Shown here in pieces: positions 37,550 to 56,510 of a stretch of DNA of 64,000 nucleotides. Positions within the stretch are counted from its first letter, which is position 1. The number at the start of each line of letters is the position of its first letter. A program made the position numbers and the translations under genes. The notes below the pieces were generated by a model. That model was not told the origin of the DNA. It did no database searches and saw only the letters and a list, made by a program, of their open reading frames with translations. This DNA comes from an uncultured Spirochaetota bacterium. GTDB lineage: Bacteria > Spirochaetota > UBA4802 > UBA5550. The stretch covers positions 4,294,874 through 4,358,873 of the forward strand of contig OW818666.1 of the NCBI GenBank assembly GCA_942493035.1, read 5' to 3'.

Positions 37550-39383
37550 GTGTGTCACGCAAGGAGTATAGAAGATGAAGGAGGGCCCTTCGGAGCCGGT
37601 ATACAGGTACAGGCTTCAAACCGCCTTAAGCTGCATTGGTAAAGAGCTATTGTGGTGAGCGTTAAGGAAAAGGCGTGATAAACACGTCAGGTGCGTTACA
37701 CGGAGACAAACGCAAGTGAATCATTGATGAGGTGTCGAAAGAGCCTACAGTTGAAGTCAAAACCGGGGTACAATGTGGATTTCGGGATAAATCTGAGAGA
37801 AACCTGTCTACTGCTCAGGTGGCTTCCGGCATAAAGATGGTGTGACTGTGTAACAGGCTTTTATATTCAACGTGAGAACCTGTCGTTTTGATGTTAAGGG
37901 AGAACTTCAAGCGGAGGCCCCGCGAGAAAGAGAGTACCGAAGCAAAGCACAGGGGCGGAGTGGTTCGTAGTAGTGAAGAAGTCTCTGTAATGGAGATGGA
38001 GCGAAGGAATCACGTTGTTCAGCTTTAAAGATTGATCAACCGGAAAACGGGAGGAGTTGATTGGATAAAGCAAAACCGTATTATATTTCCAAACATAATG
38101 TCTGGGAAAGCTACAAACAGGTAAAAGCAAACAGGGGTGCTCCCGGCGTTGATGGCGTAAATCTGGCAGATTTTGAGGCAGAATTGAAAAATAATCTGTA
38201 TAAAATCTGGAACCGGATGTCATCTGGAAGTTATGTACCTTCTCCTGTGCGTCGGGTTGAGATACCGAAAAGCGATGGGAAAACCCGGACACTCGGGATT
38301 CCCACAGTGTCTGACCGGATAGCGCAGATGGTAGTCAAACGTGAGCTCGAACCGGTATTGGAAAAAGTATTTCATCACAGCTCTTACGGATATCGCCCGA
38401 TGCGGTCTGCAAAAGATGCTGTTGCAAGTGCCCGTAAAAACTGCTGGAAATACGACTGGGTGTTAGACATCGACATTAAAGGATTTTTCGATAATATCGA
38501 TCATGACCTCATGATGAAAGCAGTACGTCGGCATACAGAAAGCGGATGGGTTAGACTGTACATAGAGCGATGGCTGAAAGCACCCGTTATGACAACTGAA
38601 GAAGGCCTTCAGCAACGAACACAGGGAACACCTCAGGGCGGAGTGATAAGCCCGCTTCTTGCAAATCTGTTTCTTCATTATGCATTTGATGTCTGGATGG
38701 GGAAAAATTATCCGTCAGTATCTTTTGAAAGATATGCGGATGACTGTATCTGTCACTGCCGCACTGAAGATGAGGCAGTCAGGCTGAAGGAAGCGCTGGA
38801 AAAGAGAATGGCTGAATGCAGGCTCGAACTCCATCCGGAAAAGACAAAGATAGTATATTGTAGAGATGACGCAAGAAAGGGCAGCTACCCGGTAGAATGC
38901 TTTGATTTTCTGGGTTTTACATTTAAAGCACGAAGGTCAAAGACGAAGCATGGGAAATATTTTATCAACTTCAGTCCAGCGGCGAGTGATAAGGCATTGA
39001 AGAACATGAGAATAACCATGAAAGCGTGGAATGTTCATCAGCGAAGCAGAGAATCACTTGAGGAATTATCCTGTAGGTTCAATGCGAAAATCAGAGGATG
39101 GATCAACTATTATGGGAGTTTTTACAGATCAGCGATGTACCCGACTTTACGTAATTTTGATTTAATTCTTTCGAGATGGGCAATGAAGAAATATAAACGT
39201 TTAAGAAATCACAAACGGAGAGCCAGGCACTGGATAGAACGTATTGCGATGAAAGAGCCGTGTTTATTTTCGCATTGGAGAATTCTTTACGGTAACGGTT
39301 GAACAACAAGAGCCGGATGAATCGAGAGATTCACGTCCGGTTCCGTGAGAGCGTAGAGGGGAGGTTCCTCTGCGCCACTCGAC
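37550..39383 (+). mobile_element. group II intron (class-C-like), copy 1, 1834 bp
   Basis: Starts GTGTG; domain V GAGCCGGATGAATCGAGAGATTCACGTCCGGTTC after the ORF; ends ...CGAC; identical to copies at 51095 and 53925. Confidence 0.85.
38061..39302 (+). CDS. group II intron reverse transcriptase/maturase (no endonuclease domain)
   Basis: 413 aa, RT domains 0-7 with YADD, plus maturase X domain. Confidence 0.9.
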   Translation: MDKAKPYYISKHNVWESYKQVKANRGAPGVDGVNLADFEAELKNNLYKIWNRMSSGSYVPSPVRRVEIPKSDGKTRTLGIPTVSDRIAQMVVKRELEPVLEKVFHHSSYGYRPMRSAKDAVASARKNCWKYDWVLDIDIKGFFDNIDHDLMMKAVRRHTESGWVRLYIERWLKAPVMTTEEGLQQRTQGTPQGGVISPLLANLFLHYAFDVWMGKNYPSVSFERYADDCICHCRTEDEAVRLKEALEKRMAECRLELHPEKTKIVYCRDDARKGSYPVECFDFLGFTFKARRSKTKHGKYFINFSPAASDKALKNMRITMKAWNVHQRSRESLEELSCRFNAKIRGWINYYGSFYRSAMYPTLRNFDLILSRWAMKKYKRLRNHKRRARHWIERIAMKEPCLFSHWRILYGNG

Positions 39384-39497
39384 AGCAACCTAATGTGGCT
39401 GAATACTTTTAGAACCTGGCAAAAAGATTTTAAAAGAAAATGAATTGAAAAACTCGCTAACGTCAGTTAGCGTGAACGTTATGCGAAAGAGCGGGGG

Positions 39498-40160
39498 CTA
39501 AAACCGCACGTCCTGTGCGGTTTTAGAAAGAAAAAATTTACACTTTTTATTCAATACACATTTATAACATAAAGGATTTCTATTACAAATCAATCTAGTA
39601 ACATCTAATAGACCATAATTATAATCTCTGAATTTTCTCAGTGGTGTTAAACTATCTGATAAATCAGCAAACCATTTTTTTCTTATTGTTTCACCATCCG
39701 TATTAAACCCAAAAAATCTACCATACAAGCGAACTATGTTGCTATCAATTATATATTCACGCTTGTTTAAATGTAGTGATAAAAAAGCTGAAGCAACGTA
39801 CTCTCCTACACATGGTAATTTTAAAAGTTCTATTTTTGAATCGGGTATTTCTTTTAAAGTATTTAATTGTTCGCATAACTTTAAAAATCGTTCATACCTC
39901 CAATTTAGGCCAAGAGTAAGGAAAATATTTTTAGGTGAATCAATAAATTGTTGTGAGGCATTATATTTTTTTATAAAATCAATGTATACTGGTAAAACCT
40001 GATCAGCATTAGTTCGTTGTAATAGAATCTCTGCAGTAAGTGCATGAAACTTATTTTTTGTATTTCTCCATTCAAACGAAGTATAAAATTTTTTTCCTGC
40101 AAGTATTATTTTATTTTGAAAATACAGAATATCTTTCTTGTCCAATTTAAAATCTGTCAT
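39498..40160 (-). CDS. HhH-GPD superfamily DNA glycosylase-like protein with C-terminal 4-Cys cluster
   Basis: HhH motif LLKLPCVGEYVASAFL and cluster CX6CX2CX5C (Nth/MutY-like [4Fe-4S]). Confidence 0.6.
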   Translation of the reverse strand: MTDFKLDKKDILYFQNKIILAGKKFYTSFEWRNTKNKFHALTAEILLQRTNADQVLPVYIDFIKKYNASQQFIDSPKNIFLTLGLNWRYERFLKLCEQLNTLKEIPDSKIELLKLPCVGEYVASAFLSLHLNKREYIIDSNIVRLYGRFFGFNTDGETIRKKWFADLSDSLTPLRKFRDYNYGLLDVTRLICNRNPLCYKCVLNKKCKFFLSKTAQDVRF

Positions 40161-40696
40161 AAATGTTTTTGTTTAAGAAACTCAATATATTTTTGTAAAT
40201 TCATGATTTTAGGTATATAATCTTTGGGGAAATCTTTCCTATATTTTTCAGGGACAACAAGTCTCACATTATACTTATACATCTCATCTAATTGTGTTTT
40301 TGAAATTCCTTGTTGAAGAGTAAATAAATATTTAACTTCGATTTTATCAGCTTCGTTTAAAATTTGTCGCCATCTATCTTTACAGGTAGTTTTGACAGCA
40401 AGAAATGTCATTTCATTGCCTGGAAATAGAATTTTTTTGTATAATTCAATATTTGGAAAAATAAAATCAGGTTTTTTATTCTGTTCTGTTACTGCTTGTG
40501 CAGAAAAAGGTATATGGTTTTCATCAAACATATATGATAAATGATTCTCTAGAGAATGACCGGCCCTTGATTTTCTCCTATTTAAAATGGAGTTTGCGAC
40601 CATTACTAAATTTTCAACTGAATCAAAAGTCTTACTAATGTATTGTTTATATCTATCATTTTCAGTACACAGATTCTTCCTGGAACCATCGAGCAT
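40157..40696 (-). CDS. small nuclease-like protein, possibly PD-(D/E)XK; N-terminus fused to IS1182-derived sequence
   Basis: 179 aa, 4-bp overlap with the glycosylase gene; the first 12 codons or so lie in the IS1182 fragment. Confidence 0.35.
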   Translation of the reverse strand: MLDGSRKNLCTENDRYKQYISKTFDSVENLVMVANSILNRRKSRAGHSLENHLSYMFDENHIPFSAQAVTEQNKKPDFIFPNIELYKKILFPGNEMTFLAVKTTCKDRWRQILNEADKIEVKYLFTLQQGISKTQLDEMYKYNVRLVVPEKYRKDFPKDYIPKIMNLQKYIEFLKQKHL

Positions 40697-42115
40697 ACCA
40701 TAAACTGGATGGTGGATAACAGGATTGATCTTTCAGGATTATCAAAGAAATACAAAAATGATTTTACAGGCGCCCCAGCTTACGATCCGGCAATATTATT
40801 AAAAATAATTCTGCTGGCATATTCCCGCGGAATTATTTCATCACGAATGATAATGAAAGCCTGCCATGAGAATATAATATTCAGAGCTTTATCAGCAGAC
40901 AGCATGCCCGATTTCACTACTATAGCATCTTTTATAAGAGAGATGAAGGATGATGTAAAAACAATATTCACAAACGTGCTACTTGTATGTAATGAGATGA
41001 ATTTATTAGGCGGAACCGAGTTTGCTCTTGACGGATGCAAGATGAGTTCAAACGCAGCTAAAGAGAACAGCGGAACATTTTCTGATTTGAAGAAAAAAAA
41101 GGATAAACTTGAATCTACTGTGAGTTTTCTTTTGAAAAAGCAGATTGAAAACGACTCTGACGATTTTAACGGGAAAGAGAATAATACCGTAAATATTGAG
41201 CAGAGAGTTGAACGTCTTGTGAAAAAGGCAGACAAGATAGAAAAGTTTCTTAAAGAAAAAACACCAAAGTTAAAAACCCGAAGCGGTGAGTGCCAGAGCA
41301 ATATCACTGATAACGAGAGCGCGAAAATGAAAACATCGCATGGAGTAATTCAGGGATATAACGGTTTGGCACTGGTTGATGCAAAACATCAGGTTGTTGT
41401 TAATGCCGAAGCCTTTGGCTCGGGTCATGAGCATGATCTCCTTGTACCAATGATCGAAGGAGCAAAGAAAAATTCAGAAGCTATTGGTCTTGGCTCTAAT
41501 TATTATAAAGGGAAAAGGATTATAGCAGATACAGGTTCATTCAAGGAGGAGAATCTTGAATATCTGTCCTCGGAGGAAATAGACGCATACATTCCGGACC
41601 AGCAATTCCGCAAACGTGATCCGAGGTTTTTAACAATGAGCAGACATAAAAACCATGGTGATAAACCATACACAAAAGATGATTTTAAATATGACAAGGC
41701 ATGCGACAGTTTCACATGTCCTGCCGGTAAATTACTGAAATACTCAGTTAACCAGAAACTTGCTAACACCGAAGGGAGAAGATATATTTCATCAAGAAGC
41801 AACTGTAATGAATGCATTTTAAGGAATAAATGTCTCCGCTCTGAGAAGACACGATATAGAACTCTTTATGTAGTTGATAAATATTTTGACCGCAACTATT
41901 CCGAAGAGATGAAATTAACAATTGATACAATTGAAGGCCGTGAAATTTACAGCAGGAGGATGGGTATTGTTGAGCCTGTATTTGGCAATATCAGAAGTTG
42001 TAAAAATATCTGCAGATTTACTTTAAGGACAAAGAACAAAGTGAATATCCAATGGATTTTATATACGATTGTTCATAACATAGAAAAGATAAGCAGATAC
42101 GGAACTACTGTGTGA
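40643..42115 (+). CDS. IS1182-family DDE transposase (N-terminus replaced)
   Basis: 490 aa; shares 120 identical residues with the 32629-33060 fragment. Confidence 0.8.
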   Translation: MFISIIFSTQILPGTIEHTINWMVDNRIDLSGLSKKYKNDFTGAPAYDPAILLKIILLAYSRGIISSRMIMKACHENIIFRALSADSMPDFTTIASFIREMKDDVKTIFTNVLLVCNEMNLLGGTEFALDGCKMSSNAAKENSGTFSDLKKKKDKLESTVSFLLKKQIENDSDDFNGKENNTVNIEQRVERLVKKADKIEKFLKEKTPKLKTRSGECQSNITDNESAKMKTSHGVIQGYNGLALVDAKHQVVVNAEAFGSGHEHDLLVPMIEGAKKNSEAIGLGSNYYKGKRIIADTGSFKEENLEYLSSEEIDAYIPDQQFRKRDPRFLTMSRHKNHGDKPYTKDDFKYDKACDSFTCPAGKLLKYSVNQKLANTEGRRYISSRSNCNECILRNKCLRSEKTRYRTLYVVDKYFDRNYSEEMKLTIDTIEGREIYSRRMGIVEPVFGNIRSCKNICRFTLRTKNKVNIQWILYTIVHNIEKISRYGTTV

Positions 42116-42228
42116 TTCAGGGATAATAAGTGAAATATATACTTCCCGGATAAGAAATGTTATATAAAAATTAAGTTGATTTTTCAGAATAACAGTAGTT
42201 TAATAATTAATGCTTTTTCTACAGGCTC
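40660..42228 (+). mobile_element. IS1182-family element, 5'-truncated copy
   Basis: Right terminal IR CTTTTTCTACAGGCTC at 42213-42228; homology to the other partial copy begins near 40660. Confidence 0.75.
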
Positions 42229-42273
42229 AACAAAGGCTAAACGCGGCGCTCGGAGTACCTCGCTTGGCCTTCG
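42229..42273 (+). repeat. attC 5' half (R'' side) between IS1182 and IS110
   Basis: AACAAAGGCTAAACGCGGCGCTCGGAGTACCTCGCTTGGCC. Confidence 0.7.
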
Positions 42274-43760
42274 GTCTTACTATGTCAAGTTTTCTAAAAA
42301 AATAATCATGCAATTTTTCTTTTTTTAAGAAAAATCTCTTTATCATATACAGTTTTATCTTTCCACATTCTAAATATTATCTTAACCCATTTATTCGAAA
42401 GAGCACGAATAGCAGAAGAATGGTTACATCCTTTTTTACGTAATAGATCATAATATTCGCGAGTCCACGCTTCAAGGCTCAAACTGCAAAATGAGAATTG
42501 ATATAATGTATCCCTAAATGATTTATTACAACCTCTTCGCATTTTAATGACATGTAAATATTTCCCACTCTGAATTGTTACTGGACATGTACCGGCATAA
42601 CATTGAACAGTTTGATACGATTCAAAACGCTTTTGTACATCCCCAAAATGCATTAAAAGTCTTGGAGCTAGTCGATCAGCAGCACCCGGCAATGAAGAAA
42701 ATATTGTTGAATATTCATTCGCAGCGTACAACATTAATATTTTTTCTTCTACCTGTTTTATCGATTTCATAAGGAACAGTAATTGATCAACAATAATCAA
42801 CACTCTCAAGGAATAACATTCCTGTATAGTTTTATTAGGAGATATTGTTTGATCCTTTAATAAACAATAAAATTCTGACTTCCTTTTTTTAGTCATATAT
42901 TTAACATCTTTAATCAACTCAAGATAGTCTTCGAAAGTTGCATTTATTATCTGTTCCGGTTTATTTAAAACTTTCAATAAATTCAGTGGAACGCTCGTAA
43001 AACCGTCAAAAAAGTCTGTAAATATAGGGAAATACTGATGCAAGTCGTTCTTCAACCTGTTTTCAAAACGCGTTTTTTCTTGTAAAAGCATTTCAAGTGT
43101 TTTGCCGTGCATTTTTAACGCTTCACAATTGTTACTAGATTTTATTATCGGGGTAAAGCGATTAAAATCCTTAAAAAGTATTAGTGCAATATTGTACGCA
43201 TCAAAGTTATCATCTTTTTTTGAGGACACCGAATATCGGTCTTTAAATCTATTAACACAAAAAGGATTCAATCCATAAACCTGATAACCTAAAGCAAGAA
43301 GATAATCCGCAAGAATATTTTTATCTGTTTCAATACCGATGAAAATTTCCTCCTTTGCAGAATGTATATTTTCAATTGCATCAATCAATTTCTTAAAGCC
43401 CTGTTTCGTTACATCAAAACGAAACTTGTTGACAACTTCCTCCTTTTCATTTAAAATACATACATCATCATGTGTTGACGACCAATCAATACCAATGTAA
43501 GTTTTCATAAGTCGCTCCTTTTATAGATATTGTGGAAACCTTTTATTCCATTTCGCCTATATATCAGGAGCTCTCGATGGAGCATACTTACTATAAATGG
43601 TATTGAAAGGTTATATAATTCGGGAGAACAGAACCGCAGGAAGTCTTTGTTAGGCAGGCACATTGAGTTCTTCCCGAATTATCCAGTATAAAAAGAATAA
43701 GTATCAATTCAGATGACACAAAGAATAAAAATCTGAATTAATACAAACATAACATATAGG
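42274..43760 (-). mobile_element. IS110-family element, copy 1 (about 1487 bp), inserted in an attC centre
   Basis: Identical to 45820-47306; no terminal IRs; flanks are attC halves. Confidence 0.8.
42306..43508 (-). CDS. IS110-family (DEDD) transposase
   Basis: 400 aa; N-terminal YIGIDWS motif and C-terminal transposase_20-like domain. Confidence 0.85.
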   Translation of the reverse strand: MKTYIGIDWSSTHDDVCILNEKEEVVNKFRFDVTKQGFKKLIDAIENIHSAKEEIFIGIETDKNILADYLLALGYQVYGLNPFCVNRFKDRYSVSSKKDDNFDAYNIALILFKDFNRFTPIIKSSNNCEALKMHGKTLEMLLQEKTRFENRLKNDLHQYFPIFTDFFDGFTSVPLNLLKVLNKPEQIINATFEDYLELIKDVKYMTKKRKSEFYCLLKDQTISPNKTIQECYSLRVLIIVDQLLFLMKSIKQVEEKILMLYAANEYSTIFSSLPGAADRLAPRLLMHFGDVQKRFESYQTVQCYAGTCPVTIQSGKYLHVIKMRRGCNKSFRDTLYQFSFCSLSLEAWTREYYDLLRKKGCNHSSAIRALSNKWVKIIFRMWKDKTVYDKEIFLKKRKIA

Positions 43761-43765
43761 CACAC

Positions 43766-44863
43766 CCTGAATTCAAGTTTGAAATGCGACAAGATGGGAG
43801 TTTAAAATATCAGCAGGAGATTTCCAACCACGGGATTTTCTCGGCCTTGCGTTTATAGAAAAAATACTATCATCAATAAATTCATCTGTCAAGTGTGCGA
43901 AACTTTTTTTCTTTGGAAGATAATATCTGATACGCCCATTTATATGTTCATTAAGACCTCGTTGCCATGAGGAATAAGGATCAGCAAAATATACATTACA
44001 GTTAAGAGCATTTTCAATTGTCTTATGCATGCAAAATTCTGAACCATTATCAAATGTAATTGATTTAATAAATCCATCAGGTAATGAACCCAAAGCCTCT
44101 GTAATTCCTCGTGTAACAGTTTCCGCATCTTTTGAAGGCAATTTAATACCCCATGTAAATGCTGCTTTTCTTTCCACAAGAGTAAGAAGATATGCATCAT
44201 TTCCAGAGCTTACAATCAGATCCCCCTCAAGATGGCCTATTTCGCTTTTATCATTTGCTTCTTCAGGGCGTTCCCTTATATTCTTTTTCGAAGGATCTTT
44301 TGCCCTGTTTTTATAGGTATTTGAGCGATTTTGGCGTTTCTTCCGTTTTATAAATAAAAATTGAGTAAAACGATATTCACCCTTTTCATTTTTTTGAGCA
44401 TACAACCACTGATATATAGATTCGTGTGATAAGTGCATTGATGCATCTTCCAGAAACATTGTCTTTAGGTATTGAGAAATTAATTCGGGTGAATCGCCGT
44501 TCCTTAAAAAGGTTATAACTATCAAACGCAGTAAGCCATTGACATCAAGCTTTCTTTTTTTTAAATTTTTCCTCTTTAAATATTCCGCTTGAGCTTCTTG
44601 TGCATGATAGCCTTTTGTTTTATTCCTATCAATTTCGCGATAAACTGTTGATTTATCACGATTTAATAATTCAGCAGTTTCTTTCACAGGCTTATCTGAA
44701 TAAATCATTTTTTGCATGACAAATCTTTCTTCAAACTGTACTTGTTTAAAATGCCTCATGGGTATCTCTCTCGGATTTGGTTTTGGTCGACTCAATCCTT
44801 TATGGAGATTTCTCATGAGGCTACTATTTTAATTTCCTTTTGCATTTCAAACTTGAATTCAGG
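43766..44863 (-). mobile_element. IS30-family insertion sequence, copy 2
   Basis: Same 22-bp IRs; 2 amino-acid differences from copy 1; inserted 5 bp from the IS110 copy 1 end. Confidence 0.85.
43773..44816 (-). CDS. IS30-family transposase
   Basis: 347 aa, near-identical to 34793-35836. Confidence 0.85.
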   Translation of the reverse strand: MRNLHKGLSRPKPNPREIPMRHFKQVQFEERFVMQKMIYSDKPVKETAELLNRDKSTVYREIDRNKTKGYHAQEAQAEYLKRKNLKKRKLDVNGLLRLIVITFLRNGDSPELISQYLKTMFLEDASMHLSHESIYQWLYAQKNEKGEYRFTQFLFIKRKKRQNRSNTYKNRAKDPSKKNIRERPEEANDKSEIGHLEGDLIVSSGNDAYLLTLVERKAAFTWGIKLPSKDAETVTRGITEALGSLPDGFIKSITFDNGSEFCMHKTIENALNCNVYFADPYSSWQRGLNEHINGRIRYYLPKKKSFAHLTDEFIDDSIFSINARPRKSRGWKSPADILNSHLVAFQT

Positions 44864-44870
44864 AATTGCC

Positions 44871-45007
44871 GATAACGTCTTGGCTAACTGACGTTAGCGA
44901 GTTTTTCAACCTATTTTTTTAAAAATCTTTTTGCCAGGTACTAAAAGTATTCAGCCACATTATGTTGCTAATGTGGCCCTTAAGGCCCAAGCCGGTACTC
45001 CGGCGCC
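44871..45007 (-). repeat. attC-like site (type GGCTAAC)
   Basis: GATAACGTCTTGGCTAACTGACGTTAGCGAG...GCCACATTATGTTGCTAATGTGGC...GGTACTCCGGCGCCGCTGTTAGCCTTTGTTATGC. Confidence 0.75.
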
Positions 45008-45054
45008 GCTGTTAGCCTTTGTTATGCGAAGGTCTGCCCCCGGTTTTCAATAAT

Positions 45055-45387
45055 TTAAGTTCTCAATAATCTCCTTAAGATTATATCTTCAAAATTTCTT
45101 CTTGAGTCAATCATTGAAAGAATATATACTTTTTGTTCTTCTATTCTATAAACTATTCGCCATGGAGTTATAATCAATTCCCGATAATTAGAAATGTTAT
45201 GGAAATCAAGTTCAGGAACAGTTCTTCCTCGTTCAGGAAAATTTTCTAATTTGATTGTTTGCTTTTTAATTATTTCAAATATTTCTTCAGCCGTATTCAG
45301 GCTGTCTAATGAAATGTATTCAATTATTTCAATAAGATCATCTTGTGCAATTTTTGTCCAATATACTGTATATTTTTTTGATGTCAT
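45055..45387 (-). CDS. parE: ParE/RelE-family toxin
   Basis: 110 aa with a RelE/ParE-fold pattern; downstream of and coupled to a Phd/YefM gene. Confidence 0.7.
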   Translation of the reverse strand: MTSKKYTVYWTKIAQDDLIEIIEYISLDSLNTAEEIFEIIKKQTIKLENFPERGRTVPELDFHNISNYRELIITPWRIVYRIEEQKVYILSMIDSRRNFEDIILRRLLRT

Positions 45388-45391
45388 GTTC

Positions 45392-45670: not shown

Positions 45671-45770
45671 TTTTTTTCCTCAAATGTGTTTGTATTGGTC
45701 TAAATATGGTACTAAATTAAGTTTTAAAGGTCAAGAATAATTTTCAAAAAACGACGGGGGCAGACTTTTG

Positions 45771-45819
45771 CATAACGCCTTGCTTACACGACGTTGCGGC
45801 GGCCGTTTGCCGCAATGTG
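45771..45819 (-). repeat. attC 3' half (R' side) abutting IS110 copy 2
   Basis: CATAACGCCTTGCTTACACGACGTTGCGGCGGCCGTTTGCCGCAATGTG. Confidence 0.7.
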
Positions 45820-47306
45820 CCTATATGTTATGTTTGTATTAATTCAGATTTTTATTCTTTGTGTCATCTGAATTGATACTTATTCTTTTTATACTGGATA
45901 ATTCGGGAAGAACTCAATGTGCCTGCCTAACAAAGACTTCCTGCGGTTCTGTTCTCCCGAATTATATAACCTTTCAATACCATTTATAGTAAGTATGCTC
46001 CATCGAGAGCTCCTGATATATAGGCGAAATGGAATAAAAGGTTTCCACAATATCTATAAAAGGAGCGACTTATGAAAACTTACATTGGTATTGATTGGTC
46101 GTCAACACATGATGATGTATGTATTTTAAATGAAAAGGAGGAAGTTGTCAACAAGTTTCGTTTTGATGTAACGAAACAGGGCTTTAAGAAATTGATTGAT
46201 GCAATTGAAAATATACATTCTGCAAAGGAGGAAATTTTCATCGGTATTGAAACAGATAAAAATATTCTTGCGGATTATCTTCTTGCTTTAGGTTATCAGG
46301 TTTATGGATTGAATCCTTTTTGTGTTAATAGATTTAAAGACCGATATTCGGTGTCCTCAAAAAAAGATGATAACTTTGATGCGTACAATATTGCACTAAT
46401 ACTTTTTAAGGATTTTAATCGCTTTACCCCGATAATAAAATCTAGTAACAATTGTGAAGCGTTAAAAATGCACGGCAAAACACTTGAAATGCTTTTACAA
46501 GAAAAAACGCGTTTTGAAAACAGGTTGAAGAACGACTTGCATCAGTATTTCCCTATATTTACAGACTTTTTTGACGGTTTTACGAGCGTTCCACTGAATT
46601 TATTGAAAGTTTTAAATAAACCGGAACAGATAATAAATGCAACTTTCGAAGACTATCTTGAGTTGATTAAAGATGTTAAATATATGACTAAAAAAAGGAA
46701 GTCAGAATTTTATTGTTTATTAAAGGATCAAACAATATCTCCTAATAAAACTATACAGGAATGTTATTCCTTGAGAGTGTTGATTATTGTTGATCAATTA
46801 CTGTTCCTTATGAAATCGATAAAACAGGTAGAAGAAAAAATATTAATGTTGTACGCTGCGAATGAATATTCAACAATATTTTCTTCATTGCCGGGTGCTG
46901 CTGATCGACTAGCTCCAAGACTTTTAATGCATTTTGGGGATGTACAAAAGCGTTTTGAATCGTATCAAACTGTTCAATGTTATGCCGGTACATGTCCAGT
47001 AACAATTCAGAGTGGGAAATATTTACATGTCATTAAAATGCGAAGAGGTTGTAATAAATCATTTAGGGATACATTATATCAATTCTCATTTTGCAGTTTG
47101 AGCCTTGAAGCGTGGACTCGCGAATATTATGATCTATTACGTAAAAAAGGATGTAACCATTCTTCTGCTATTCGTGCTCTTTCGAATAAATGGGTTAAGA
47201 TAATATTTAGAATGTGGAAAGATAAAACTGTATATGATAAAGAGATTTTTCTTAAAAAAAGAAAAATTGCATGATTATTTTTTTAGAAAACTTGACATAG
47301 TAAGAC
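45820..47306 (+). mobile_element. IS110-family element, copy 2
   Basis: Identical to copy 1; inserted between ATGTG and GCGAAG of an attC centre. Confidence 0.8.
46072..47274 (+). CDS. IS110-family (DEDD) transposase
   Basis: 400 aa, identical to 42306-43508. Confidence 0.85.
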   Translation: MKTYIGIDWSSTHDDVCILNEKEEVVNKFRFDVTKQGFKKLIDAIENIHSAKEEIFIGIETDKNILADYLLALGYQVYGLNPFCVNRFKDRYSVSSKKDDNFDAYNIALILFKDFNRFTPIIKSSNNCEALKMHGKTLEMLLQEKTRFENRLKNDLHQYFPIFTDFFDGFTSVPLNLLKVLNKPEQIINATFEDYLELIKDVKYMTKKRKSEFYCLLKDQTISPNKTIQECYSLRVLIIVDQLLFLMKSIKQVEEKILMLYAANEYSTIFSSLPGAADRLAPRLLMHFGDVQKRFESYQTVQCYAGTCPVTIQSGKYLHVIKMRRGCNKSFRDTLYQFSFCSLSLEAWTREYYDLLRKKGCNHSSAIRALSNKWVKIIFRMWKDKTVYDKEIFLKKRKIA

Positions 47307-47355
47307 CGAAGGCCAAGCGAGGTACTCCGAGCGAAGCGTATAAGCTTTGTTATAT
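47307..47355 (-). repeat. attC 5' half (R'' side) after IS110 copy 2
   Basis: CGAAGGCCAAGCGAGGTACTCCGAGCGAAGCGTATAAGCTTTGTTATAT. Confidence 0.7.
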
Positions 47356-47422
47356 GACGTTGGGCAATGCACTTAAAGTTTGTCCCTGTTGAGTCAAGGA
47401 CGACGAAACAGGTTGTAAAAGT

Positions 47423-48101: not shown

Positions 48102-48195
48102 ATTGCAAATATATGTCCTATTAGATAGGGTGTCAAGCAAAAAGTTTCATTAAAAAACCGGGCAGGACGCCCGGCCTTAATTTTTTGCCCAATGT

Positions 48196-48301
48196 CATAT
48201 AACGTCTTGCTTAAACGACGTTTGCCAGTTTCACGGTAAATTTTGTATTGAACGAGTTTACCCAACACAAAAAATATTTGCCACTGAAAGTTGGCAAATG
48301 T
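48196..48301 (-). repeat. attC 3' half split by IS21 copy A
   Basis: CATATAACGTCTTGCTTAAACGACGTTTGCC...GCCACTGAAAGTTGGCAAATGTG; the other half lies at 56511-56567. Confidence 0.7.
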
Positions 48302-48476
48302 GCGTATTCCGGCCCAAACCTGCCACTCATTCCGGAAAATGCCTGCCACCTGTTCCGGTGCAAAGTTGCCACCCATTCCGGTTGAAACCTGCCACTTTTA
48401 GGATTTTACCGGAATAAAAAACAAACCATTTCCTTTTAAAACAGAGCCTGATTAATCTGATAAAAAATCAAATCAG

Positions 48477-50054
48477 ATGGAGTTACCGGGCATGTCACAA
48501 AGGAGAATATCGATGAAAAAAATCAGAGAAATCATGCGTCTTCACGAGCAGTCAAAACTTAGTCAGAGACAGATATCCCAAGCCCTTGGAATGTCTCGTC
48601 CGGTCGTCAGCGATTATATTAACAAGGTTAAAACATTCGGATTAACTTTTATTGATATAGAAAATATGCCGGATGAAACGCTTCTAAATATTCTACAGGG
48701 AAATAAAACAGCAGACAATAAACGACATGAAATACTTCAAAAACAATTCCTTCATTTCACGCAGGAGCTAAAACGTCTCGGAGTGACTCGCCAAACTTTG
48801 TGGGAAGAATACATAGAGGAAAATCCAGACGGATACAGTTACTCGCAGTTTTGTTATCATTTTCAGATCTGGCAGAATATGTCAGAGATTACAATGCACA
48901 TTGAACATAAAGCGGGCGACAAACTCTTTGTGGATTTTGCCGGTAAGAAACTTGCCATAACAGACCGGACGACAGGAGAGATAAGAGAGGTTGAAGTTTT
49001 TGTAGCAATCCTGGGAGCAAGCCAGCTTGTCTATGTAGAAGCTTCAATGAGCCAGAAGAAGGAGGAATGGATAAGACTAAATGAAAATGCATTAAGATAC
49101 ATCGATGGTGTTCCACTGGCTATTGTGCCAGACTGCTTAAAATCGGCAGTAACAAAAACAGACAGATACGAACCGGATATCAATCCGGAGTATCTTGATT
49201 TTGCCAGACATTACGGCACAACAATACTTCCTGCACGACCTGCAAAACCGAAAGACAAAGCTCTGGTTGAAGGAGCTGTACGAATTTCATATTCATGGAT
49301 TTACGCCAAGCTTCGTGACCGTGTATTCTTTTCACTTGAAGAACTCAACGCTGCGATCATGGAGTTGCTTGAATCATTCAATTCCCGGACAATGCAGCGA
49401 CCTGGTGTAAGTCGACGGGAACTTTTTGACAGCATTGAAAAGAGTGAACTGCAGCCTCTTCCAGAGGATCTTTATGAAATCAAGAAGTTTAAAATCCTCA
49501 CAGTTCAATTTAACTATCATATCTATCTGAGTGATGACAGTCATTACTACAGTGTGCCATATCGCTATAAAGGGCGGAAAGTAGAAGTACTTTTCACAGA
49601 AAGAGCCGTAGAAGTCTATTGTGGCAACGTAAGAGTCGCCTCACATTTTAGAAACAGGAGAAAAAACGGATACACAACACAAAGGAATCATATGCCGGAA
49701 TCACACAAATGGGAGGATAATTGGAACCCGGAAAAACTGACCAATATTGCAAAACTAAAAGGCGATGCTGTGGTAACTGTAATTGAAATAGTTCTCTCCT
49801 CCCGGCAGCATCCTGAGCAGAGTTATAAAACATGCCTCGGAATATTTGCCCTAACTAAAACATATGGAGAAATCCGACTTAACCGTGCTTGTGAATTGGC
49901 TCTCTACTATGAAAACTGCACATACAAGATGATTAAAAATATTCTAAGCAACAACATGGATCAAGCAGGTGAAGAAGATAAAGACTCGGAATTCACCCTA
50001 CCTGAACATGATAACATAAGAGGCAATCAATATTACATGGAGGAATTACAATGA
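48477..50054 (+). CDS. istA: IS21-family transposase IstA
   Basis: 525 aa; HTH N-terminus, integrase core. Confidence 0.85.
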   Translation: MELPGMSQRRISMKKIREIMRLHEQSKLSQRQISQALGMSRPVVSDYINKVKTFGLTFIDIENMPDETLLNILQGNKTADNKRHEILQKQFLHFTQELKRLGVTRQTLWEEYIEENPDGYSYSQFCYHFQIWQNMSEITMHIEHKAGDKLFVDFAGKKLAITDRTTGEIREVEVFVAILGASQLVYVEASMSQKKEEWIRLNENALRYIDGVPLAIVPDCLKSAVTKTDRYEPDINPEYLDFARHYGTTILPARPAKPKDKALVEGAVRISYSWIYAKLRDRVFFSLEELNAAIMELLESFNSRTMQRPGVSRRELFDSIEKSELQPLPEDLYEIKKFKILTVQFNYHIYLSDDSHYYSVPYRYKGRKVEVLFTERAVEVYCGNVRVASHFRNRRKNGYTTQRNHMPESHKWEDNWNPEKLTNIAKLKGDAVVTVIEIVLSSRQHPEQSYKTCLGIFALTKTYGEIRLNRACELALYYENCTYKMIKNILSNNMDQAGEEDKDSEFTLPEHDNIRGNQYYMEELQ

Positions 50055-50809
50055 ACAATCAGGGAACGATTGAAAAGATGCAGGAAATGCGTCTTCACGG
50101 AATGCTCAGTTCATTCCGTGAAACATTCTCTACAGATATGAAAAACAAGTTTACGGTTGATGAAATGGTCGCTCATCTCATCGATGCTGAATGGGATGAA
50201 AGGTATAACAGGAAATTTAAAACTCTGCTTAAAAATGCAGCCTTTAGATATAAGGCAAGTGTTGAAGAGATAGATTTCAAACCATCACGAAAAATTGACA
50301 GAAATCTGATACTCAGATTCTCGACATGTGACTGGATCAAAAAAGGAGAGAGCATTATCATCACCGGTTCTACAGGTGCAGGTAAAAGTTTTATGGCCTG
50401 CGCACTTGGTCATAAAGCATGTATTCTTCGTTATCAGGTTGGATACTACAACTGCTTGAAATTGTTTTCACATCTGAAGTACTGTAAAGTTGATGGATCA
50501 TATTTTAAAGAGATGAATAAAATTAAAAAACTGGATTTGATAATTCTTGATGACTTCGGATTAAAGCCTTTTGATTCAGACTCGCGGTTAATGTTACTTG
50601 AGATGCTTGAAGATCGCCACGGCAGCAGATCGATAATTATTAGTTCTCAAATTCCTACAGATAAGTGGTTTGATCTTATTGGGGATGCGACTATTGCGGA
50701 TGCAATCTGTGATAGACTTCTTCATACTTCACATAAAATAGACATTAAAGGAGATTCTATGAGAAAGGAAAAATCAAAAAATTCTGGACGAAACCTGCCA
50801 CTTGAGTAA
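50051..50809 (+). CDS. istB: IS21-family helper ATPase IstB
   Basis: Walker A motif GSTGAGKSF, 252 aa. Confidence 0.85.
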   Translation: MNNQGTIEKMQEMRLHGMLSSFRETFSTDMKNKFTVDEMVAHLIDAEWDERYNRKFKTLLKNAAFRYKASVEEIDFKPSRKIDRNLILRFSTCDWIKKGESIIITGSTGAGKSFMACALGHKACILRYQVGYYNCLKLFSHLKYCKVDGSYFKEMNKIKKLDLIILDDFGLKPFDSDSRLMLLEMLEDRHGSRSIIISSQIPTDKWFDLIGDATIADAICDRLLHTSHKIDIKGDSMRKEKSKNSGRNLPLE

Positions 50810-51094
50810 TGGTTAGTTCGAAAATGGAAATGGATTAAAAGTGGTAAACTTAAAACCGGAATAGGTGGCAGGTTTCACCGGAATACGTAATTTTACCAGA
50901 TAATTTAATAAAACGTCGCGATGAATTGTTAAATTTAAAAAAAACATTATTAGGTGAATCGACTCAGAAAAATAAAACCACAGATTAAAAGTACATCCGT
51001 GTACTTTTAAAAATTTATAGTAATAAACGCCAAAAACATCGTACAACAAAGGCTAACAGCAGCGCCGGAGTACCGGCTTGGGCTTCGCCACATT

Positions 51095-52928
51095 GTGTGT
51101 CACGCAAGGAGTATAGAAGATGAAGGAGGGCCCTTCGGAGCCGGTATACAGGTACAGGCTTCAAACCGCCTTAAGCTGCATTGGTAAAGAGCTATTGTGG
51201 TGAGCGTTAAGGAAAAGGCGTGATAAACACGTCAGGTGCGTTACACGGAGACAAACGCAAGTGAATCATTGATGAGGTGTCGAAAGAGCCTACAGTTGAA
51301 GTCAAAACCGGGGTACAATGTGGATTTCGGGATAAATCTGAGAGAAACCTGTCTACTGCTCAGGTGGCTTCCGGCATAAAGATGGTGTGACTGTGTAACA
51401 GGCTTTTATATTCAACGTGAGAACCTGTCGTTTTGATGTTAAGGGAGAACTTCAAGCGGAGGCCCCGCGAGAAAGAGAGTACCGAAGCAAAGCACAGGGG
51501 CGGAGTGGTTCGTAGTAGTGAAGAAGTCTCTGTAATGGAGATGGAGCGAAGGAATCACGTTGTTCAGCTTTAAAGATTGATCAACCGGAAAACGGGAGGA
51601 GTTGATTGGATAAAGCAAAACCGTATTATATTTCCAAACATAATGTCTGGGAAAGCTACAAACAGGTAAAAGCAAACAGGGGTGCTCCCGGCGTTGATGG
51701 CGTAAATCTGGCAGATTTTGAGGCAGAATTGAAAAATAATCTGTATAAAATCTGGAACCGGATGTCATCTGGAAGTTATGTACCTTCTCCTGTGCGTCGG
51801 GTTGAGATACCGAAAAGCGATGGGAAAACCCGGACACTCGGGATTCCCACAGTGTCTGACCGGATAGCGCAGATGGTAGTCAAACGTGAGCTCGAACCGG
51901 TATTGGAAAAAGTATTTCATCACAGCTCTTACGGATATCGCCCGATGCGGTCTGCAAAAGATGCTGTTGCAAGTGCCCGTAAAAACTGCTGGAAATACGA
52001 CTGGGTGTTAGACATCGACATTAAAGGATTTTTCGATAATATCGATCATGACCTCATGATGAAAGCAGTACGTCGGCATACAGAAAGCGGATGGGTTAGA
52101 CTGTACATAGAGCGATGGCTGAAAGCACCCGTTATGACAACTGAAGAAGGCCTTCAGCAACGAACACAGGGAACACCTCAGGGCGGAGTGATAAGCCCGC
52201 TTCTTGCAAATCTGTTTCTTCATTATGCATTTGATGTCTGGATGGGGAAAAATTATCCGTCAGTATCTTTTGAAAGATATGCGGATGACTGTATCTGTCA
52301 CTGCCGCACTGAAGATGAGGCAGTCAGGCTGAAGGAAGCGCTGGAAAAGAGAATGGCTGAATGCAGGCTCGAACTCCATCCGGAAAAGACAAAGATAGTA
52401 TATTGTAGAGATGACGCAAGAAAGGGCAGCTACCCGGTAGAATGCTTTGATTTTCTGGGTTTTACATTTAAAGCACGAAGGTCAAAGACGAAGCATGGGA
52501 AATATTTTATCAACTTCAGTCCAGCGGCGAGTGATAAGGCATTGAAGAACATGAGAATAACCATGAAAGCGTGGAATGTTCATCAGCGAAGCAGAGAATC
52601 ACTTGAGGAATTATCCTGTAGGTTCAATGCGAAAATCAGAGGATGGATCAACTATTATGGGAGTTTTTACAGATCAGCGATGTACCCGACTTTACGTAAT
52701 TTTGATTTAATTCTTTCGAGATGGGCAATGAAGAAATATAAACGTTTAAGAAATCACAAACGGAGAGCCAGGCACTGGATAGAACGTATTGCGATGAAAG
52801 AGCCGTGTTTATTTTCGCATTGGAGAATTCTTTACGGTAACGGTTGAACAACAAGAGCCGGATGAATCGAGAGATTCACGTCCGGTTCCGTGAGAGCGTA
52901 GAGGGGAGGTTCCTCTGCGCCACTCGAC
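51095..52928 (+). mobile_element. group II intron, copy 2
   Basis: Identical to copy 1. Confidence 0.85.
51606..52847 (+). CDS. group II intron RT/maturase
   Basis: Identical 413-aa ORF. Confidence 0.9.
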   Translation: MDKAKPYYISKHNVWESYKQVKANRGAPGVDGVNLADFEAELKNNLYKIWNRMSSGSYVPSPVRRVEIPKSDGKTRTLGIPTVSDRIAQMVVKRELEPVLEKVFHHSSYGYRPMRSAKDAVASARKNCWKYDWVLDIDIKGFFDNIDHDLMMKAVRRHTESGWVRLYIERWLKAPVMTTEEGLQQRTQGTPQGGVISPLLANLFLHYAFDVWMGKNYPSVSFERYADDCICHCRTEDEAVRLKEALEKRMAECRLELHPEKTKIVYCRDDARKGSYPVECFDFLGFTFKARRSKTKHGKYFINFSPAASDKALKNMRITMKAWNVHQRSRESLEELSCRFNAKIRGWINYYGSFYRSAMYPTLRNFDLILSRWAMKKYKRLRNHKRRARHWIERIAMKEPCLFSHWRILYGNG

Positions 52929-53092
52929 AGCAACCTAATGTGGCTGAATACTTTTTGTTTTGGGCAAACTGATTTTTAAAAAAAATGAGTTGTTAAACTC
53001 GCTAACGTCAGTTAGCCAAGACGTTATATGTAATGGCAACAAAATTTAAGACCGGGCGTCCATGCCCGGAGAGAAAAGAGGAAATTAATCCT

Positions 53093-53806
53093 ATGAATAA
53101 AATTATAACAGTCGCATTTATTCTATTATTCTTTTCAAAAAGCTATTCTGCAGATAAACACTTATTGATATTTAAACCAATTGAAAACTTGAAATATAAA
53201 ATACAGATTCAGCCTGCTCCAGAATCAGTAATATTAAATAAACTTTTTGGTGCGTATTCTTCCAATAGCATTTTTAAGATGTCTATCAAGGAAAATGATA
53301 AAAATACTTACAAAGTAACATCTTCCTTGATAATATTTAATAAATCAAGCTGTTGTAATCCACTAACTTATCCTGGTTATTTTATTACAACAGATAGAGA
53401 AATTGAAAATATCATAAGCCCTACCGGAGAATTTATTGATAATAGTAATGACTATCTATCAATGGGATGCATATTTGGCTTTAACATTTTAAAACTCAAT
53501 AATAAAGAGAAAAACATTAAACCAGTGATAATTCCTTTTTATTTCCCTGATAAAGAAATTTCAATTGGTGAATCATGGACCTGTAAATTTGAATTTGATG
53601 ATAATGTAAATGCTAACCCATTGTTCATTGATTATACAATAAAAAAAGTATCTGATAATATTGCATATATAGATGGTTACAGTTTAGATAGATTACATAT
53701 CACTGCACAATTTAATATTACAAAAGGTTGTTGGACTAACTATAAGATGTTCGTCAAAAAAGATTCAGAAGAATATTTATTTAAAAGTTTTGAGTTAATA
53801 GAATAG
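53093..53806 (+). CDS. secreted/lipoprotein-like cassette protein
   Basis: Signal peptide MNKIITVAFILLFFSKSYSA; identical to 60970-61683 on the opposite strand; the ORF-track N-terminal extension is translation of the upstream hairpin. Confidence 0.6.
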   Translation: MNKIITVAFILLFFSKSYSADKHLLIFKPIENLKYKIQIQPAPESVILNKLFGAYSSNSIFKMSIKENDKNTYKVTSSLIIFNKSSCCNPLTYPGYFITTDREIENIISPTGEFIDNSNDYLSMGCIFGFNILKLNNKEKNIKPVIIPFYFPDKEISIGESWTCKFEFDDNVNANPLFIDYTIKKVSDNIAYIDGYSLDRLHITAQFNITKGCWTNYKMFVKKDSEEYLFKSFELIE

Positions 53807-53924
53807 GCACAATGCCTTCGCCCATCCGTGGGCTACGGCAGACCGAACTTTGTGTAAATGTTGCCACTACATATAACAAAGGCTAACAGCGGCGCCGGAG
53901 TACCGGCTTGGGCTTCGCCACATT

Positions 53925-55758
53925 GTGTGTCACGCAAGGAGTATAGAAGATGAAGGAGGGCCCTTCGGAGCCGGTATACAGGTACAGGCTTCAAACCGCC
54001 TTAAGCTGCATTGGTAAAGAGCTATTGTGGTGAGCGTTAAGGAAAAGGCGTGATAAACACGTCAGGTGCGTTACACGGAGACAAACGCAAGTGAATCATT
54101 GATGAGGTGTCGAAAGAGCCTACAGTTGAAGTCAAAACCGGGGTACAATGTGGATTTCGGGATAAATCTGAGAGAAACCTGTCTACTGCTCAGGTGGCTT
54201 CCGGCATAAAGATGGTGTGACTGTGTAACAGGCTTTTATATTCAACGTGAGAACCTGTCGTTTTGATGTTAAGGGAGAACTTCAAGCGGAGGCCCCGCGA
54301 GAAAGAGAGTACCGAAGCAAAGCACAGGGGCGGAGTGGTTCGTAGTAGTGAAGAAGTCTCTGTAATGGAGATGGAGCGAAGGAATCACGTTGTTCAGCTT
54401 TAAAGATTGATCAACCGGAAAACGGGAGGAGTTGATTGGATAAAGCAAAACCGTATTATATTTCCAAACATAATGTCTGGGAAAGCTACAAACAGGTAAA
54501 AGCAAACAGGGGTGCTCCCGGCGTTGATGGCGTAAATCTGGCAGATTTTGAGGCAGAATTGAAAAATAATCTGTATAAAATCTGGAACCGGATGTCATCT
54601 GGAAGTTATGTACCTTCTCCTGTGCGTCGGGTTGAGATACCGAAAAGCGATGGGAAAACCCGGACACTCGGGATTCCCACAGTGTCTGACCGGATAGCGC
54701 AGATGGTAGTCAAACGTGAGCTCGAACCGGTATTGGAAAAAGTATTTCATCACAGCTCTTACGGATATCGCCCGATGCGGTCTGCAAAAGATGCTGTTGC
54801 AAGTGCCCGTAAAAACTGCTGGAAATACGACTGGGTGTTAGACATCGACATTAAAGGATTTTTCGATAATATCGATCATGACCTCATGATGAAAGCAGTA
54901 CGTCGGCATACAGAAAGCGGATGGGTTAGACTGTACATAGAGCGATGGCTGAAAGCACCCGTTATGACAACTGAAGAAGGCCTTCAGCAACGAACACAGG
55001 GAACACCTCAGGGCGGAGTGATAAGCCCGCTTCTTGCAAATCTGTTTCTTCATTATGCATTTGATGTCTGGATGGGGAAAAATTATCCGTCAGTATCTTT
55101 TGAAAGATATGCGGATGACTGTATCTGTCACTGCCGCACTGAAGATGAGGCAGTCAGGCTGAAGGAAGCGCTGGAAAAGAGAATGGCTGAATGCAGGCTC
55201 GAACTCCATCCGGAAAAGACAAAGATAGTATATTGTAGAGATGACGCAAGAAAGGGCAGCTACCCGGTAGAATGCTTTGATCTTCTGGGTTTTACATTTA
55301 AAGCACGAAGGTCAAAGACGAAGCATGGGAAATATTTTATCAACTTCAGTCCAGCGGCGAGTGATAAGGCATTGAAGAACATGAGAATAACCATGAAAGC
55401 GTGGAATGTTCATCAGCGAAGCAGAGAATCACTTGAGGAATTATCCTGTAGGTTCAATGCGAAAATCAGAGGATGGATCAACTATTATGGGAGTTTTTAC
55501 AGATCAGCGATGTACCCGACTTTACGTAATTTTGATTTAATTCTTTCGAGATGGGCAATGAAGAAATATAAACGTTTAAGAAATCACAAACGGAGAGCCA
55601 GGCACTGGATAGAACGTATTGCGATGAAAGAGCCGTGTTTATTTTCGCATTGGAGAATTCTTTACGGTAACGGTTGAACAACAAGAGCCGGATGAATCGA
55701 GAGATTCACGTCCGGTTCCGTGAGAGCGTAGAGGGGAGGTTCCTCTGCGCCACTCGAC
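53925..55758 (+). mobile_element. group II intron, copy 3
   Basis: Identical except for one substitution (F to L in the RT). Confidence 0.85.
54436..55677 (+). CDS. group II intron RT/maturase
   Basis: 413 aa. Confidence 0.9.
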   Translation: MDKAKPYYISKHNVWESYKQVKANRGAPGVDGVNLADFEAELKNNLYKIWNRMSSGSYVPSPVRRVEIPKSDGKTRTLGIPTVSDRIAQMVVKRELEPVLEKVFHHSSYGYRPMRSAKDAVASARKNCWKYDWVLDIDIKGFFDNIDHDLMMKAVRRHTESGWVRLYIERWLKAPVMTTEEGLQQRTQGTPQGGVISPLLANLFLHYAFDVWMGKNYPSVSFERYADDCICHCRTEDEAVRLKEALEKRMAECRLELHPEKTKIVYCRDDARKGSYPVECFDLLGFTFKARRSKTKHGKYFINFSPAASDKALKNMRITMKAWNVHQRSRESLEELSCRFNAKIRGWINYYGSFYRSAMYPTLRNFDLILSRWAMKKYKRLRNHKRRARHWIERIAMKEPCLFSHWRILYGNG

Positions 55759-56493: not shown

Positions 56494-56510
56494 ACCGAAA
56501 AAAAACGGCA

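Follow-up and report, generated by a model that had tools for sequence, protein, structure and literature searches.

A class D group II intron that probably homes into the conserved core of an attC-like repeat in an uncultured Spirochaetota cassette array

How does a group II intron come to occupy three attC-like sites of one genome, on a strand and at a position other than those used by the canonical attC introns? The question is raised by a 64,000-nucleotide stretch of DNA (hereafter the window) from an uncultured Spirochaetota bacterium (GenBank assembly GCA_942493035.1, contig OW818666.1, positions 4,294,874 to 4,358,873, forward strand), in which three copies (A, B and C) of one intron lie within the repeats of a cassette array. 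In bacteria, group II introns are recognised to have three kinds of target – homing sites, terminator motifs and attC sites – and attC specificity has been tied to a single class C sub-lineage that reads the structure of bottom-strand DNA (PMC4424553). A first-pass annotation, made from the sequence of the window, had called the three copies class-C-like. Our analysis leads to a different answer: the element is probably a class D intron that homes into the conserved central core of one attC-like repeat family, and three separate attCs of one genome have been invaded recently.

The three intron regions were aligned together with 100-nt flanks. Identity runs exactly from GTGTG to ...CCACTCGAC. 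The copies differ solely at intron nt 1358, where copy C has C in place of T, and the FDFLGF motif of its encoded reverse transcriptase (RT)/maturase accordingly bears the change F283L. The general features of a group II intron are all present: the 5′ GTGTG, an open reading frame (ORF) in domain IV, between domains I–III and domain V, domains V and VI (DV and DVI), and the 3′ end ...CCACTCGAC. A scan of the whole window at Rfam gathering thresholds returned six matches, all within the three introns and none elsewhere: group-II-D1D4-2 (RF01999; 117 bits each) near the 5′ end of every copy (intron nt 28–143), and the DV/DVI model (RF00029; 56 bits each), whose match ends precisely at 39383, 52928 and 55758. 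DV begins GAGCCGG, making its triad AGC, and DV and DVI fold as expected (z = −5.1).

Each copy lies directly 3′ of GCCACATT within a repeat of attC architecture; at every copy the 5′ exon reads ...GGGCT(T/G)CGCCACATT, in the centre of the repeat and on the cassette-sense (top) strand. Because intron-free paralogues in the window show the site as a contiguous sequence, the intron boundaries are exact to the nucleotide. With a slash at the point of insertion, the type-1 empty paralogue reads ...GCCACATT/AGCAACCTAATGTGGC... (beginning AGCAACC; for example at 60750–60915, minus strand) and the type-2 paralogue ...GCCACATT/GCGCAAAAGACCGCGC..., also given as ...GCCACATT/GCGCAAAAG... (33936–34035, minus strand). 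We considered whether the odd 3′ flank of copy C reflects wrongly drawn boundaries and rejected this, since the type-2 empty sites give the same junction. The alignment and the Rfam matches agree with the extents, length and GTGTG start given in the first-pass annotation and with its DV/DVI at the 3′ end, and the empty paralogues bear out its placement of all three insertions at one attC position. Its further statements need qualification: the copies are identical in the case of A and B but not of C, with its one single-nucleotide polymorphism (SNP), and removal of the intron restores a contiguous attC at A and B but leaves a chimera with unpaired L boxes at C. The near-identity of the three is in keeping with the recent mobility that it had proposed.

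The strand on which the intron lies is the one that reads from R″ (ATAAC) to R′ (GTTAT), which is also the strand of the cassette ORFs; the insertion is therefore in the top strand and in sense orientation. It occupies the middle of the attC, 52 nt from where R″ starts. For canonical attC introns of class C (IIC-attC) the point of insertion is TTGT/T in R″ of the bottom strand, and their orientation relative to the cassettes is antisense (PMC3001079, PMC7923331). Both contrasts had been drawn in the first-pass annotation, and both are confirmed by these reports.

The repeats have the layout of integron attCs. They begin (A/T)(T/C)AAC-AAA-(L″) and end (L′)-AAGAC-GTT(A/G)T, with complementary L boxes of two types (type 1, GGCTAAC/GTTAGCC; type 2, GCTTACCCG/CGGGTAAGC) on which the predicted single-strand folds close, and with asymmetric spacers (3 nt between R″ and L″, 5 nt between L′ and R′). 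A strict regular-expression attC finder gave no matches in the window; an nhmmer profile of the 5′ half, used in its place, located 13 such halves between 33.9 and 63.6 kb. Each repeat is preceded by one ORF or ORF pair on the same strand, and ORFs and attCs remain co-oriented in native and inverted segments alike. The cargo includes restriction-modification genes, PIN and Gp49 proteins and DUFs; an 880-aa OmpA-like protein flanking the array is 81% identical to one of ‘Spirochaetae bacterium HGW-Spirochaetae-5’. Beyond the window, the conserved core (GGCTTNNCCACATT) was looked for in metagenome contigs and turned up at 132 sites on 116 contigs, among which the L boxes differ in sequence yet stay complementary (for example GCGTGTATATG/CATATACACGC) and some members carry the canonical R′ boxes GTTAGAC and GTTAGAT. 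On the strength of the R″/R′ boxes, the covarying L″/L′ pairing and the arrays of same-strand cassettes, we think it likely that the repeats are attCs of an integron or of a cluster of attC sites without a neighbouring integrase (CALIN), arrays of the latter kind being common (PMC7923331).

A tyrosine-recombinase motif scan found no IntI in the 64-kb window, and the array runs off its right end, so that attC architecture is the sole ground for speaking of an integron. The repeats could then be something else – Xer-like recombinase sites or another structured intergenic repeat resembling repetitive extragenic palindromes or miniature inverted-repeat transposable elements – with the intron homing into a sequence that happens to be abundant. 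Attention is drawn in this direction by the central core GAGTACC-N3-4-TTGGGCTTYGCCACATT, which over more than 100 metagenomic contigs is unusually well conserved for the centre of an attC, ordinarily a variable region, and by R′, which in the window is often GTTATRY, a slight departure from GTTRRRY, the 3′ ends being GTTAT, GTTGT or GTTAG. Moreover, the only tyrosine recombinases found in a scan of the 116 metagenomic loci were ones without the IntI-specific additional domain; they score 170–210 bits on TIGR02249 against a cutoff of 265, with the match split into two stretches. Set against this are R″ (...YAAC) and R′ (GTT...) boxes at the repeat ends on the ORF strand, L″/L′ pairs that covary across three box sequences and are asymmetrically spaced, canonical R′ boxes in some members, the regular pairing of one co-oriented ORF or ORF pair, with typical cassette cargo, to each repeat, and the frequency of CALINs. 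Together these make a non-attC origin of the repeats unlikely.

Recombinases adjoin this repeat family at five of the metagenomic loci: L118 (2007–3077), L172 (375–1028), L191 (5425–6246), L203 (5387–6301) and L173 (254–1141). They are mostly divergent from the arrays and end ...SPLD, like IntI. They may be a non-canonical integrase, or unrelated neighbours.

The three copies could have spread not by retrohoming but as DNA, through cassette duplication, gene conversion or recombination of attC × attC. The array is indeed heavily rearranged by insertion sequence (IS) elements, a 933-bp cassette duplication abuts copy C, and copy C carries the mark of recombination at the intron. Copies A and B, however, are 100% identical over 1,834 bp, yet have unrelated cassettes as neighbours and attC flanks with several differences on either side; the limits of identity coincide exactly with those of the intron, neither the RT (YADD) nor the ribozyme is damaged, and the same junction recurs in other genomes with introns diverged to 80% identity. 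Because the flanks differ around identical introns, A and B are separate insertions, and we rejected segmental duplication as their source; spread at the DNA level is very improbable as a general account.

The class of the intron was assigned from its protein and its ribozyme. The 413-aa RT contains only the Pfam domains RVT_1 (aa 68–288) and GIIM (aa 313–391), which upholds the first-pass description of an RT/maturase lacking an endonuclease (En) domain, and its active-site motif YADD (aa 225) is intact. Class D proteins are marked by the C-terminal signature LX3AX3PXLF[V/A]HW (PMC4615759). The window RT has IERIAMKEPCLFSHW, or (I)X3AX3PXLF(S)HW, which agrees at the fixed positions except for L to I and [V/A] to S; its C-terminus, ...HWIERIAMKEPCLFSHWRILYGNG, fits the class D signature, and sister RTs end the motif with LFTHW, LFSHW or LFAHW. 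The RT is 59.3% identical over its full length to that of Pa.de.I1 (found by tblastn of plasmids at NC_008688 19602–20840, which falls within the Pa.de.I1 intron, CP000491 19065–20924), an intron listed as class D in Table S1 of Toro & Martinez-Abarca 2013. It is 64% identical to another 419-aa intron-encoded protein (IEP), from S. meliloti, and 53% identical to an RmInt1-family IEP in an IS66 context, but merely 36% identical to the IIC RT of PDB 7uim. In a quick neighbour-joining (NJ) tree, whose outside references were few and did not include a bona fide IIC-attC RT, the window RT groups with those of the sister introns L083 and L086; their clade falls within the class D group, and the IIC RT stands far off on a long outgroup branch. 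The triad of DV is AGC, whereas IIC introns are described with CGC (PMC7923331), and a covarying EBS2 (see below) is present. Signature, identities, tree, triad and EBS2 all indicate that the intron is, on its sequence, an autonomous, full-length, En-less class D element of RmInt1 type with a IIB-like ribozyme. The class-C-like label given at first does not survive: the RT falls outside class C, an outcome that the first-pass annotation had itself named as refuting it.

That the element might still be a variant IIC-attC intron, reading a DNA stem-loop and a short IBS1 and merely shifted to a new attC position and strand, is scarcely credible: its RT is small and En-less, hairpins stand upstream of the site (GCCGG-AGTA-CCGGC and a short GGC-loop-GCC stem) and one IIC intron cited in PMC7923331 lies in the top strand of an Enterobacter cloacae attC in sense orientation, but the class D signature, 59% identity to Pa.de.I1 against 36% to a IIC RT (a comparison that includes no bona fide IIC-attC RT), the AGC triad and an EBS1 of 7 bp with a covarying EBS2, against 3–4 bp and no EBS2 in IIC introns, essentially refute it. 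The best PDB matches of the RT are IIC RTs as well, at only ~185 bits; we rejected the class C assignment to which they would lead, since no class D structure is in PDB and the matches are uninformative.

Target recognition was approached by covariation. From 80 genomic loci 41 related introns could be delimited; their first 340 nt were aligned and each intron was scored against its own exons. The column of exon-binding site 1 (EBS1) complements the intron's own last six exon bases (at least 5 of 6 bp) in 37 of the 41, compared with 14% of cross-pairings, and for the EBS2 column pairing of at least 4 of 5 bp with the exon of the same intron, around −13 to −9, is seen in 32 of the 41, compared with 28% of cross-pairings. 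The first-pass annotation had pointed to CACATT as the site of pairing with EBS1 and EBS3; in the event the EBS1 sequence AATGTGG pairs with the intron-binding site (IBS1) CCACATT, but the predicted EBS3, an A, is unpaired with the +1 base. At the copy A site IBS2 is GGCTG, which leaves 4 of 5 pairs with EBS2. IBS2 and IBS1 are separated by a 2-nt linker, as in RmInt2 (PMC4615759). The location of both EBS1 and EBS2 by covariation argues that the target is read by base pairing of the IIB type and not by the hairpin recognition of IIC introns. The positions of these and other features are collected in Table 1.

Table 1. Features of the window discussed in the text, in window coordinates.
Feature	Position	Strand	Remarks
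Intron copy A	37550..39383	+	1,834 bp; full group II intron, predicted class D; from alignment, Rfam matches and empty-site paralogues
Intron copy B	51095..52928	+	1,834 bp; 100% identical to copy A
Intron copy C	53925..55758	+	1,834 bp; one SNP; chimeric attC
RT/maturase ORF, copy A	38061..39302	+	413 aa; TTG start; GGAGG 7 nt upstream
RT/maturase ORF, copy B	51606-52847	+	as copy A
RT/maturase ORF, copy C	54436-55677	+	as copy A except F283L
Domain V	39310-39343	+	34 nt; AGC triad, GAGA loop, 2-nt bulge
Domain VI	39351-39383	+	bulged A 7 nt before 3′ end
EBS1	37772..37778	+	AATGTGG, intron nt 223-229; pairs with IBS1 CCACATT, exon −7 to −1
EBS2	37741..37745	+	GAGCC, intron nt 192-196, after conserved GUCGAAA; pairs with IBS2 GGCTT, −14 to −10, one G.U
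Predicted EBS3	37834	+	A, intron nt 285; alignment column complements exon +1 in 77% of 40 relatives
attC A, 5′ half	37498..37549	+	R″ ATAAC, L″ GGCTAAAC, core ending GGGCTGCGCCACATT
attC A, 3′ half	39384-39482	+	ends in R′ GTTAT
attC B, 5′ half	51043..51094	+	3′ half 52929-53027
Copy C 5′ half, type-1 attC	53873..53924	+	also end of 933-bp duplication
Copy C 3′ half, type-2 attC	55759..55798	+	L′ GGGTAAGC, not complementary to type-1 L″ GGCTAAC
Intact empty type-1 attC	60750..60915	-	empty-site paralogue for copies B and C
Further empty sites with CCACATT	33936-34035, 44872-45032, 62606-62768, 63412-63573	-	
IS21-family element (istA/istB)	48301..50890	+	inverted twin 56565-59154; from Pfam
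IS30-like element	34740..35854	+	inverted twin 43755-44869; brackets the copy A segment
EcoRII/IS1182-IS5-like region	40157-40696 (-), 39498-40160 (-), 40643-42115 (+), 32629-33060 (-)		

Copy C is set apart by its flanks. Its 5′ half belongs to a type-1 attC and its 3′ half to a type-2 attC, so that after removal of the intron the L boxes are non-complementary and no attC fold is obtained. The 933-bp duplication (52992–53924) is 99% identical to the cassette at 60852–61784 (minus strand), whose own attC is intact and empty, and it stops exactly at the 5′ junction of copy C. The combination of a type-1 5′ half, a type-2 3′ half and a duplication ending at the 5′ junction is best explained by homologous recombination between two intron copies, one presumably in a type-1 and the other in a type-2 attC. 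A putative second case of rearrangement at an intron border is found outside the window: the sister loci L086, L205 and L206 have the upstream cassette, the attC 5′ half and the intron in common, and differ in their 3′ exons and downstream cassettes, L205 being without 12 or more nt of the attC 3′ half.

These sister loci came from a protein search, in which only three clusters exceeded 70% identity: the window's own RT, P0002 (77%) and P0003 (76%). The first of the other two (P0002; L083–L085) comprises introns of 80% nucleotide identity, that of L083 lying on a 4.27-Mb contig of a related Spirochaetota, with the junction ...CTTGGGCTTTGCCACATT/GTGTG...CTCGAC/GCGCAAAAGACC... in a type-2-like attC and in sense to the upstream cassettes. 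The second (P0003; L086, L205 and L206, from three JGI samples) has the same junction in another attC. The presence of introns of ~80% identity at the same attC position in two other metagenome-derived sources points to a small lineage of attC-homing introns, not a one-off. The lineage is evidently rare, for the intron occupies 0 of the 132 metagenomic core sites. In addition, no exact match to its 5′ 24 nt was found in the metagenome contigs, and the window's exact RT is recorded elsewhere only on a 1.4-kb Logan contig; exact look-ups of three window proteins found no record. An RT scan of genome contigs returned 80 relatives of 52–67% identity, none of which lies at the attC target.

The nearest relatives of the clade (L001, L003, P0004 and P0008) mostly interrupt other group II RT genes, at the R-Y-A-D-D codons. 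Class D relatives nested in these codons of another intron's RT gene were seen at L001, L003, L005, L011, L013 and L017, and also at L040–L046, L062, L064, L070–L072 and L081; at L081 the host intron has an Rfam D1D4-6 match upstream. A structural peculiarity also separates the window intron and its two sisters from most relatives, namely the absence of the first hairpin of domain I (D1): only 27 nt (window 37550–37576) lie between GUGUG and the conserved AGAUGA, against ~50 nt in most relatives.

The occupied sites are not distributed evenly between the strands. The minus strand carries most attCs of the array; the three that are occupied belong to the plus strand, in two segments bracketed by inverted IS pairs, and sites with a perfect IBS1 are occupied in 3 of 3 cases on the plus strand and 0 of 5 on the minus. 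For the segment carrying copies B and C (50891–56564) the history can be read directly: the arms of the flanking IS21 pair are 100% complementary over 2,590 nt, and IS21 has split a single attC, with duplication of the CACATT target, so that the 3′ half of this attC abuts the element at 48302 and the 5′ half at 56565. The presence of the split target halves at both elements proves an IS21-mediated inversion. GC skew of the flanking chromosomal DNA (+0.052, plus strand) suggests the plus strand as lagging-strand template. That template is favoured by class D introns such as RmInt1 (PMC8914252, PMC4615759), and among sedentary chromosomal integrons the leading-strand template carries the attC bottom strands in 25 of 30 cases (PMC5371416), which makes the top strands part of the lagging-strand template. 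The pattern of occupancy fits a class D lagging-strand-template bias without proving it, and we infer that a class D lineage entering the top strand in sense would make mechanistic sense.

Several observations weigh against our interpretation, beyond the missing IntI. The predicted EBS3 A pairs with the +1 base at 0 of the 5 known sites of the lineage (A, A, G, G, G; the window copies have A, A and G, and the base is a purine at all five, L083 and L086 included), a T matching it is found at +1 in 55 of the 132 empty metagenomic sites, and no alternative EBS3 position was found beside the one identified by covariation. The IBS1 of the type-1 attC is predicted to lie in a strong hairpin of single-stranded DNA (GCCACATTAG/CTAATGTGGC), which would compete with EBS1. 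The strand asymmetry comprises 8 sites (Fisher p ~0.02, or ~0.05 counting perfect-IBS2 sites only), and the sole indication of the direction of replication is a GC skew that is weak and covers 32 kb. The thin outside sampling of the RT tree counts here too.

By analogy with RmInt1, the intron would be transcribed together with the cassettes, its own RT/maturase would assist splicing, and the ribonucleoprotein (RNP) would then reverse-splice into single-stranded target DNA. Being En-less, the RNP would prime from the nascent strand at the replication fork, preferably on the lagging-strand template; such a preference would account for occupancy solely in the IS-inverted segments, where the attC top strand is the plus strand. 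The 1.8-kb insertion would part R″/L″ from L′/R′, so that the split attC could no longer fold as a compact hairpin, and identical intron copies could serve as portable homology for recombination. The chimera at copy C and the comparison of L086 with L205 suggest that the copies drive rearrangement of the array independently of an integrase.

[quoted passage not shown] We put this forward tentatively and regard it as somewhat improbable in its entirety.

Other mobile elements have left their mark on the same repeats. An IS110-family element (42229–43764, 45816–47351) is flanked by ...CTCGCTTGG and CACATT; like both IS21 copies, it is inserted in the ~10-nt attC core that the intron also uses. 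The conserved attC core looks like a landing pad common to several mobile elements. Elsewhere in the array an IS1182/IS5-like transposase gene apparently cuts short a cassette ORF with an EcoRII C-terminal domain; 303 nt of this IS are also found, inverted, at 32668–32970. Outside the cassette array, a 62-nt direct repeat (21069–21130 and 23990–24051; 94% identical), with a GC-rich hairpin (GGGACCGC/GCGGTCCC), flanks the ORFs at 21138–23790.

If a different intron class has reached attCs by ordinary EBS/IBS homing, at another position, on the other strand and in sense, the result is a case of convergence. The locus also lends itself, as a natural system, to three questions: which of the two attC strands is single-stranded in vivo, what an insertion that halves the attC does to cassette mobility, and whether identical intron copies drive the rearrangement of arrays without an integrase. 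It carries a warning, too, that an attC-borne, En-less intron should not be classed as IIC by context alone. In a literature whose coverage here is incomplete, we found no report of a class D lineage homing by EBS/IBS pairing into a conserved attC core.

Several described introns approach the window intron in one respect or another. The IIC intron of E. cloacae (Rodriguez-Martinez et al. 2012, cited in PMC7923331) is likewise in the attC top strand and in the orientation of the cassettes; it differs in being class C and, as far as that citation describes it, a single case with no lineage or conserved homing site. The IIB introns of halophiles (UHB.I2, of class CL1, and H.ha.F1/F2, of class E; Sonbol & Siam 2021; PMC7923331) are also non-IIC, En-less and located in cassette arrays. 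They belong to other RT classes, the class E elements being fragments in CALIN (PMC7923331); UHB.I2 is in sense to the cassettes, as here, but lies after and not within the attC, and its exons are not conserved (PMC7923331). For none of these halophile introns are there multiple copies, recurrence of a junction across genomes or EBS–IBS evidence for attC homing. Vi.vu.I1, like the window intron, is a class D element in an integron array, that of the V. vulnificus chromosome (Toro & Martinez-Abarca 2013, Table S1); as listed in that table, it interrupts a ‘hypothetical’ cassette gene and not an attC, and its RT has 439 aa.

With the class D (IIB3) introns RmInt1, RmInt2, Sr.md.I1 and Pa.de.I1, the window intron shares an RT-X protein of ~413–419 aa without a DNA-binding/endonuclease (D/En) region, the C-terminal motif, 53–64% RT identity and the architecture of D1 (EBS1, EBS2 after GUCGAAA, and an EBS3 position in the coordination loop); homing by base pairing and a bias to the lagging-strand template would probably be common to them as well, and its 2-nt IBS2–IBS1 linker is that of RmInt2. 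It differs from them in its target, theirs being an IS element or an RT gene and its own an attC-like core, in the absence of the first D1 hairpin, which most relatives have, and in a predicted EBS3 mismatched to +1.

With the IIC-attC introns (S.ma.I2, E.c.I7, Kl.pn.I1, G.s.I1 and N.e.I1) it has in common the absence of En, specificity for integron attCs, including those of integrase-less arrays, and the capacity to reshape arrays, intron–intron homologous recombination having been proposed for IIC-attC introns as a route to cassette formation. The IIC-attC introns are of class C, enter the bottom strand at TTGT/T in R″ in antisense, recognise a folded attC stem-loop and an IBS1 of 3–4 bp, keep the attC almost whole and provide outward promoters; the window intron lies centrally in the top strand and in sense, is predicted to use EBS1 together with EBS2 for target recognition, and cuts its attC into two parts.

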